This document shows, piece by piece, positions 1-328 of a stretch of DNA of 328 bases; positions within the stretch are counted from its first letter, which is position 1, and every line of letters starts with the position of its first letter. The translations under genes and the position numbers were made by a program. Below the pieces are notes generated by a model. It worked only from the letters and a program-made list of their open reading frames with translations, was not told the origin of the DNA and made no database searches. Source of the stretch: Escherichia coli. GTDB lineage: Bacteria > Pseudomonadota > Gammaproteobacteria > Enterobacterales > Enterobacteriaceae. Location of the stretch: the NCBI RefSeq assembly GCF_003334335.1, contig NZ_QOWQ01000219.1. The stretch is one strand, 5' to 3'.

Positions 1-308
1 TGCAGTCCGCCCTTTCCGGCACCGGCCAGTCGCGGCACAATGTGGATGACCGTTCCCTCACCCAGCTGTTCGTGAAGACGGGCGTACACCGCCTCCGGTG
101 CCGTGTCCTCACCGGCAATACGTATCTGGTACCAGCCTTCGTTCATCTGACGGCGGAATCCGGGCACCTGTAACGACAGCGCCCGGATGGCTTCCGCTGC
201 CGTGTTCACATACAGGCTGAGGCGGCGGCCAAATCGTTGTAAATCCCCGTAAAGGCAGATGCGTGCCAGTGGCGGTGACGCCAGACAGAATGCGTTCGTC
301 GTTGCCAT
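1..308 (-). CDS. I: Phage tail tip assembly protein I (lambda gpI-like), N-terminal 102 codons; 3' end lies beyond plus position 1
   Basis: Minus-strand ORF starting at ATG (complement of plus 306-308) and open to the window edge. The translation matches my recollection of lambda gpI in blocks such as ARICLYGDLQRFGRR, AEAIRAL, GWYQ(I/V)RIAG and VIHIVPR(L/V)AGA-K-GG. Codon usage and GC third-position bias are consistent with enterobacterial coding DNA. Homology is from memory, not a search. Confidence 0.9.
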   Translation of the reverse strand, partial: MATTNAFCLASPPLARICLYGDLQRFGRRLSLYVNTAAEAIRALSLQVPGFRRQMNEGWYQIRIAGEDTAPEAVYARLHEQLGEGTVIHIVPRLAGAGKGGL

Positions 309-328
309 TTTTCGGAATACCTCTCCCG
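206..328 (-). CDS. K: Phage tail tip assembly protein K (lambda gpK-like, JAB/MPN plus NlpC/P60 family), C-terminal 40 codons plus stop; 5' end lies beyond plus position 328
   Basis: Minus-strand frame open from the window edge to TGA (complement of plus 206-208), translating to RERYSEKWQRRTHSVWRHRHWHASAFTGIYNDLAAASACM*. It overlaps the I start by 103 nt in a different frame, the same overlap length I recall for lambda K/I (K 14276..14875, I 14773..15444). The peptide resembles the lambda gpK C-terminus as I remember it (…RERY..KWQRRTHS.WRHR.W.ASAFTGIYNDL.AAS…). Confidence 0.8.
   Translation of the reverse strand, partial: RERYSEKWQRRTHSVWRHRHWHASAFTGIYNDLAAASACM
320..326 (-). promoter_or_regulatory. 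Candidate Shine-Dalgarno element for gene I (GGAGAGG on the minus strand), lying inside the K coding sequence
   Basis: Minus-strand GGAGAGG sits 11 nt upstream of the I start codon. The spacer is longer than the usual 5-9 nt, so this is a weak or atypical ribosome binding site. No other purine-rich motif lies closer to the ATG. Confidence 0.35.

Follow-up and report, generated by a model that had tools for sequence, protein, structure and literature searches.

The genes K and I of bacteriophage lambda overlap out of frame by 103 nt in the RefSeq annotation (NC_001416: K, 14276..14875; I, 14773..15444). This is the longest out-of-frame overlap of the lambda late operon, in which the other overlaps of this kind measure 1-26 nt, and it has stood in the lambda annotation for decades. 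The sections of Iyer et al. 2006 (PMC1779556) that deal with the two proteins assign I a ubiquitin-like domain, predict that the JAB domain of K cleaves I at a Gly-Gly site, present K and I as a predicted enzyme-substrate pair, and report a fusion of JAB with I in one E. coli prophage. In the cryo-EM structures of lambda only gpI residues 134/135-223 are visible and gpK is absent from virions (PMC10721106, PMC12617516), an observation that fits the predicted removal of the ubiquitin-like domain and has no bearing on the overlap. Virion mass spectrometry detected a single gpI peptide (PMC10721106). Here, we compared with these systems a 328-nt stretch of Escherichia coli DNA, referred to below as the window.

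Frame translation places K and I both on the minus strand of the window. The K frame is open from 328 to the stop codon TGA at 208..206, and its translation, RERYSEKWQRRTHSVWRHRHWHASAFTGIYNDLAAASACM followed by the stop, is identical to the last 40 residues of K of Escherichia phage PhiR5_1. The window therefore carries the 3' end of K, a tail-tip assembly gene (206..328, minus strand; residues 208-247 and the stop), which covers the final helix and strand of the NlpC/P60 domain and a C-terminal helix. Lambda, Gifsy-2, cdtI and mEp332 have the K stop codon (206..208, minus, in the window) in the same place. The start codon of I, ATG (306..308, minus), is embedded in the K codons AAA TGG encoding Lys214-Trp215. 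From this ATG the I frame, which begins with MATTNAFCLASPPLARICLYGDLQRFGRR, is open for 102 codons and runs off the left end of the window (1..308, minus; translation MATTNAFCLASPPLARICLYGDLQRFGRRLSLYVNTAAEAIRAL...VPRLAGAGKGGL), the reading frame continuing beyond it. Thus, the two genes share 103 nt (206..308, minus), with I in the -1 frame relative to K. A stop codon in the I frame is located 7 codons upstream of ATG 308..306, which is the first start codon after that stop and, reading the sequences, the only canonical start upstream of I strand 1 in the lambda clade. Given that an open alternative frame of 34 codons is not rare by chance, the significance of the overlap comes from homology in both frames together with conservation and not from mere openness. 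Both frames match lambda gpK and gpI in sequence, and the overlap has the length annotated in lambda, so the initial annotation was right both in naming the two genes and in giving lambda an overlap of equal length; Gifsy-2, cdtI and mEp332 are annotated with the identical 103-nt overlap as well. The window matches PhiR5_1 at 99.4% identity and many Stx-converting phages at 94-99%, and of 5426 complete E. coli genomes 4147 contain similar sequence, the median among these being two copies. Three open reading frames on the plus strand of the window (43, 40 and 21 aa) are antisense to K and I; nothing was found in their support and they were dismissed. Together, we consider it probable that 308..206 belongs to the tail operon of a lambda-type prophage and truly codes in two frames, a judgement that extends to the whole explanation developed below. 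The overlap is real and doubly constrained, and it is ordinary, inherited and already known from lambda.

Both proteins have defined structure in the shared segment. K of PhiR5_1 carries the Pfam domains Prok-JAB (PF14464; residues 3-105) and NLPC_P60 (PF00877; residues 111-224), and the window encodes its C-terminus, i.e. the gpK C-terminus, while most of both peptidase domains is encoded outside the window. The AlphaFold2 model of this K (pLDDT 91) shows a short helix at 213-218, the last NlpC/P60 strand at 219-225 and a C-terminal helix at 234-246, all of which lie in the overlap, and the K tail motif F.GI.ND is kept in relatives including those without overlap. The part of I present in the window (residues 1-102) comprises the whole ubiquitin-like domain. 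Pfam analysis, run on I of PhiR5_1, which has the same first 102 residues as the I of the window, matched Lambda_tail_I (PF06805) with E = 1.6e-16 at residues 15-97, covering model positions 3-83 of 83. The AlphaFold2 model of I has a beta-grasp fold with pLDDT of 85-91 over residues 11-90, and its Foldseek matches were MoaD, SAMP1, CysO, Urm1 and ubiquitin with a target TM-score of about 0.7, in agreement with the assignment of Iyer et al. In this model strand 1 spans residues 14-19 and strand 2 residues 29-33 (pLDDT about 90); the sequence encoding them (210..269, minus; residues 14-33) coincides with that for the C-terminal tail of K. Strands 1-2 are homologous in every I protein that we examined, including those of non-overlapping phages. 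Because the K tail motif and I strands 1-2 are kept where the genes do not overlap, each of them is a real protein segment. The preceding 13 residues of I (MATTNAFCLASPP; 270..308, minus), which overlap the conserved K motif KWQRRTHSVWRHR, form an N-terminal extension specific to the lambda clade; it lies outside the Lambda_tail_I match, is predicted to be disordered (pLDDT about 52), and is missing from the aligned I proteins of mEp010-type, Pasteurellaceae-type and more distant phages. At its other end the ubiquitin-like domain closes with Gly-Gly (window 11..6, minus; residues 100-101) in the sequence ...AGAGKGG (residues 95-101). G96 does not vary in either alignment, nor does G101 in alignment A2, so the C-terminal glycines are in place.

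To describe the variation of the junction we used 418 loci from GenBank phages and IMG/VR, in which the K stop and the I core were placed by profile HMMs. In all 242 lambda-type loci (71 distinct junctions) the distance between the ATG and the end of the K stop is exactly 103 nt, without indels; among these loci K is about 71-100% identical, and the lambda-type sequences are relatives of 75-100% identity. The proposal that ATG 308..306 is the conserved start of I is therefore correct for the lambda-type clade (242/242) and incorrect for the family at large, in which the start is located 13 codons downstream. Among 60 distinct sequences, third-position diversity was 0.142 in the K-only and 0.164 in the I-only region, compared with 0.057 at third positions of K codons (first positions of I codons) and 0.036 at third positions of I codons (second positions of K codons) in the overlap, where the third-position peaks are lost in both frames, and in the window's own clade 49 of 100 K wobble sites were variable outside the overlap vs 5 of 34 inside (Fisher p = 0.0005), statistics that come from related, recombining and phylogenetically non-independent sequences, which makes the p-value indicative only. 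These figures agree with the expectation, voiced when the overlap was first pointed out, that dual coding would suppress synonymous variation. Lambda and the window phage differ at 17.5% of positions in the overlap and at 16.0% in the K-only region; total identity is not raised in the overlap, and the dual-coding signal sits in the pattern of codon positions. The further suggestion that the constant length betrays selection on the arrangement is unwarranted: lambda-type sequences are close relatives and any indel would damage two proteins, hence descent and double purifying selection suffice. One IMG/VR contig (L050; site equivalent to L002 1739) carries a single-base deletion that frameshifts the ubiquitin-like domain of I, and K of mEp332 has a single-base deletion in a G-run of its N-terminal part (L085, about 967); each reflects either a prophage copy in decay or an error of sequencing.

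Exploring the sequence upstream of the I start, we found a Shine-Dalgarno (SD)-like GGAGAGG (320..326, minus), spelled by the K codons (cg)G GAG AGG and separated from the ATG by 11 nt, which is a long spacing. Its AGG (322..320) is a rare arginine codon of K. The predicted duplex of GGAGAGG with the anti-SD is -8.6 kcal/mol compared with a mean of -5.3 inside K, a value that ranks only in about the top 10-15%. In 173 of 178 distinct lambda-type K genes, the arginine of K-R-E-R-Y that makes GAGAGG ahead of the upstream I ATG is encoded by AGG, vs 12% AGR among all arginines of these genes. A second arginine of K, that of S-I-W-R, is encoded by AGA or AGG in 115 of 115 distinct K genes of phages with a 58-nt overlap (58-type), vs 25% AGR overall, and there AGR makes GGAG 9 nt before the 58-type I ATG; the same arginine is CGN in 175 of 178 lambda-type genes and CGG in 12 of 12 resolved Mannheimia-type genes. 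Thus, which synonymous codon K uses depends on where I starts, a pattern drawn from few independent lineages, perhaps four. The rare arginine codons tracking the I start point to independent internal initiation. RNA structure masking the I start was considered and rejected, as the 120-nt fold around the start is no more stable than shuffled sequence (z = +0.39) and no unusual mRNA structure was seen there. A literature search for data on the I N-terminus or for ribosome profiling found nothing usable, the virion mass spectrometry giving the single gpI peptide. From the completeness of the modelled fold, the wobble constraint and the choice of SD codons we infer that ATG 308..306 serves as the initiation codon of I. 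I would thus be made by independent initiation inside the K frame, at the ATG formed by the Lys-Trp codons AAATGG, from an SD GGAGAGG that the rare AGG would write into the Glu-Arg codons of K, and neither termination-reinitiation at the K stop nor frameshifting would be involved.

The position of the start differs across the family. Two deep clades, mEp010-type and Pasteurellaceae-type, whose K proteins are 40-50% identical to that of the window, contributed 138 loci in which K and I overlap by a core of 58 nt in the same relative frame. The I start of these 58-type phages aligns with Met14 of lambda, and lambda-type I proteins carry the 13 extra residues upstream of it. In the annotations of more distant phages, K and I overlap by 4-26 nt in either frame, abut, or are parted by other genes. 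Within our explanation, the 103-nt length would have been derived within the lambda clade: an upstream move of the I initiation site by 39 nt would have lengthened an older overlap, of about 58-64 nt and common to the mEp010- and Pasteurellaceae-type phages, the shift having presumably run in this direction. The site of the family-wide start is represented in the window by CTG (267..269, minus; Leu14 of I), which corresponds to Met14 in lambda and to Met1 in the short-I phages; it is ATG in 50 distinct lambda-type junctions and CTG in 21 including the window, and in the sub-clade of the window the old start codon would have decayed to CTG.

Other modes of producing I were weighed against initiation at ATG 308..306. 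In the single RefSeq E. coli record that we looked at, PGAP starts I at GTG 209..207 (207..209, minus; L259 1120; L002 1620; Val34 of I), as do the annotators of PhiR5_1; this codon overlaps the K stop by 4 nt as GTGA and gives a 193-aa protein. I would then be made by termination-reinitiation and the stretch between ATG and GTG would be untranslated, which would agree with the presence of GTGA in both lambda and the window phage and with the 176-196 aa of distant homologues. However, the GTG start removes residues 1-33, and with them strands 1-2 as well as 20 residues at the beginning of the Pfam domain, although these strands are homologous even in phages whose K and I do not overlap, and it is the 13-residue extension and the length of the linker, not the fold, that make distant homologues differ in length. 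The GTG start also leaves unexplained why K wobble sites are constrained across the ATG-to-GTG stretch in the window's clade and why the I frame is open and begins with ATG in all 242 loci. The 20 nt ahead of GTG contain no GGAG, GAGG or AGGA, so the codon is not preceded by an SD-like motif, and 100 nt separate the K stop from the upstream start that leaves the fold intact, whereas reinitiation calls for a start within a few nt of a stop. We consider initiation of I at GTG very unlikely; the annotated GTG is probably a misannotation and ATG 308..306 the better call. Frameshifting by -1 within the overlap, e.g. at the A-run GAAAAATGG (313..305), would yield instead a K-I fusion processed in cis by JAB. 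I is indeed in the -1 frame of K, in the window's clade tRNA-Lys could re-pair from AAA to AAA one base back with the ATG next to it, and the part of PMC1779556 on this protein pair describes a JAB-I fusion in an E. coli prophage, but the K frame holds no X XXY YYZ heptamer from 328 to 206 and the A-run at 313..308 is out of heptamer register. Nor is the run conserved, as it reads GACAAATGG in lambda, Gifsy-2 and cdtI and CAACAATGG in 58-type phages. The 120 nt around the start showed no stimulatory structure (the z-score given above), an Rfam search gave no match, the I frame is closed by a stop 2-11 codons upstream of the ATG, and both ATG and SD are conserved, as initiation would predict. 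Lacking a slippery heptamer, a conserved A-run, an RNA structure and an Rfam match, the K-to-I frameshift fusion was rejected as extremely improbable. Two isoforms of a lambda phage protein, S107 and S105, are made from two starts. Likewise, two I isoforms could arise from in-frame starts at residues 1 and 14, the latter being the family-wide start, and both ATGs are kept in 50 of the 71 distinct lambda-type junctions. In the window, however, the second isoform would require initiation at CTG 269..267, upstream of which there is no SD (-1.5 kcal/mol), and in 175 of 178 lambda-type K genes the SD-forming AGR upstream of residue 14 is replaced by CGN; we hold it highly improbable that I is made in two forms. 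Initiation at the single upstream ATG remains our preferred reading, and I proteins should be modelled or expressed from this codon, given that the GTG form lacks two ubiquitin-like strands. If the choice of GTG is general, it touches a prophage module present in the majority of complete E. coli genomes.

The overlap was lost at least twice, through duplication of the shared segment and insertion of DNA. The non-overlapping forms are nested in overlapped clades and keep both the K tail and I strands 1-2, and the single shared segment of their overlapped relatives matches two places in the resolved loci. In one of these (L229, IMG/VR contig 2690316013_000003) the I copy is identical at 49 of 58 and the K copy at 33 of 58 positions, where the background is 14.5 +/- 3.4, and the two copies are the two best windows of the locus. 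The Mannheimia group shows the two-copy pattern too, with a 3-nt register shift, and each duplicate copy has gained changes that break the other frame. When traces of the duplication were looked for in alternative-frame translations of a Mannheimia phage only stop-rich frames were obtained, the signal being present at the nucleotide level instead. Because overlap-free lineages exist, including the isolated Mannheimia phage 587AP2, the overlap is dispensable; separating K from I needs duplication of the shared segment. K of Serratia phage PhooPhighters, used as a query against viral contigs, retrieved no loci.

The junction of K and I is also a recurrent site of insertion (L086 2230..2497; L251 2503..2916; L090 2254..3003; L114, L101, L102). 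L229 carries at 2523..3045 an HNH endonuclease gene (phrog_59, E = 1.9e-41), found in L231 as well, which is flanked by two diverged copies of the former overlap, and the new end of K is derived from the inserted DNA. Mannheimia phages have a terminator and small ORFs between K and I, one of them small and hydrophobic, mEpX2 has a lipoprotein gene (phrog_914), a Pseudomonas phage a lipoprotein-like ORF, and the insert of L114 encodes a 239-aa protein of unknown function (phrog_31798). The G+C content of the inserts is below that of their surroundings.

We favour the explanation that the overlap and its length persist mainly since both protein segments would be needed and any indel would hit both, although a regulatory benefit is possible. 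The long overlap could have been selected as a device that ties synthesis of I to translation of K, ribosomes on K occluding or unmasking the I ribosome binding site and thereby fixing the ratio of K to I. K and I are a predicted enzyme-substrate pair (PMC1779556, in its treatment of this pair), their overlap is longer than any other out-of-frame overlap of the lambda late operon (103 nt vs 1-26 nt), a same-frame overlap is retained across K proteins that are only 40-50% identical, and most of the distant lineages overlap K and I too, by 4-26 nt. Yet the length of the overlap varies between clades, as does the relative frame in distant ones, the overlap has been lost at least twice, including in 587AP2, and several phages carry unrelated genes between K and I. 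Furthermore, the mRNA structure at the I start is not unusual, and the constancy within the clade is already explained by the double coding constraint. We therefore regard selection for such coupling as unlikely. A more elaborate form, in which the I site written in rare K arginine codons is crossed by K ribosomes so that I output is gated by K translation, and in which the 39-nt shift of the start re-tuned the ratio, we consider slightly more doubtful still. Returning to the coding constraint that we favour, the locus changes little in the biology, as it is a known lambda feature in a very common prophage family. As a case of overlapping-gene evolution it presents a start that moved, an SD carried by synonymous codons of the other gene, and an escape by duplication only.

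Aligning the K genes, we noted that the lambda reference (J02459/NC_001416) misses one base at about 14267 (L001, about 1015; GGAGGC-TATTTCC) that is present in cdtI, mEp332 and PhiR5_1. The missing base puts the first ~46 K codons, with the JAB Glu-x-Cys-Gly region among them, in another frame, and because of it lambda K is annotated as 199 aa only, from an internal ATG. Lambda derivatives sequenced independently (DE3, KT232076, lambda imm21, HK630) align with one extra base, and the 199-aa lambda K is probably due to an error in the reference sequence or a strain mutation. Two further records look like contamination or mislabelling: GenBank MW057783 (Campylobacter phage CJLB-4) is lambda-like, 48,361 bp long, with an 81-nt K stretch 98.8% identical to lambda, and MT713136 (Aeromonas phage AP1, 254 kb) has near its end a 69-nt, 95.7% match to the K/I junction (253762..253830).

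Compared with described systems, the window is closest to the K/I junction of lambda itself. The genes, the relative frame, the 103-nt length, the position of the stop and the start context AAATGG are the same, the SD-like GAGAGG comes from the same K codons and is spaced 11 nt from the ATG, and nucleotide identity across the junction is 78.6%. Common to lambda and the window phage are the K tail ...KWQRRTHS.WRHR.W.ASAFTGIYNDL... and the I N-terminus MA.T......ASP..ARICLYGDLQRFGRR. Unlike lambda, the window phage has CTG (Leu) in place of Met14 and has thereby lost the second in-frame ATG, it differs at 6 of the 13 residues of the N-terminal extension, and RefSeq annotates its I from the downstream GTG. 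The 58-nt type shares with the window a homologous dual-coding core, in which the K C-terminal tail overlaps I strands 1-2 with I in the -1 frame, an ATG within a K Trp or Cys codon preceded by A, and an SD drawn from K codons, there a Trp-Arg pair; it differs in that its start is 13 codons further downstream without the extension, its K stop is 2 codons earlier, and its SD is TGG-AGR and not GAG-AGG as in the lambda type. The TAPI/TAPK system is represented in the window by the complete TAPI ubiquitin-like domain with its C-terminal glycines and by the end of TAPK, whereas the relevant sections of PMC1779556 treat domains and gene neighbourhood, leave the overlap unmentioned, and offer cleavage of I by K as a prediction. 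The ATGA coupling overlaps (4 nt) of phage late operons resemble K/I in joining adjacent same-strand genes of an operon and in the GTGA at the K stop, but the predicted functional start of I is 100 nt upstream of that stop, too far for reinitiation. Finally, as in the lambda G/GT frameshift, two tail-assembly frames overlap with the downstream one in -1; unlike G/GT, K/I has no slippery heptamer and no stimulatory structure, and I has its own conserved ATG and SD.
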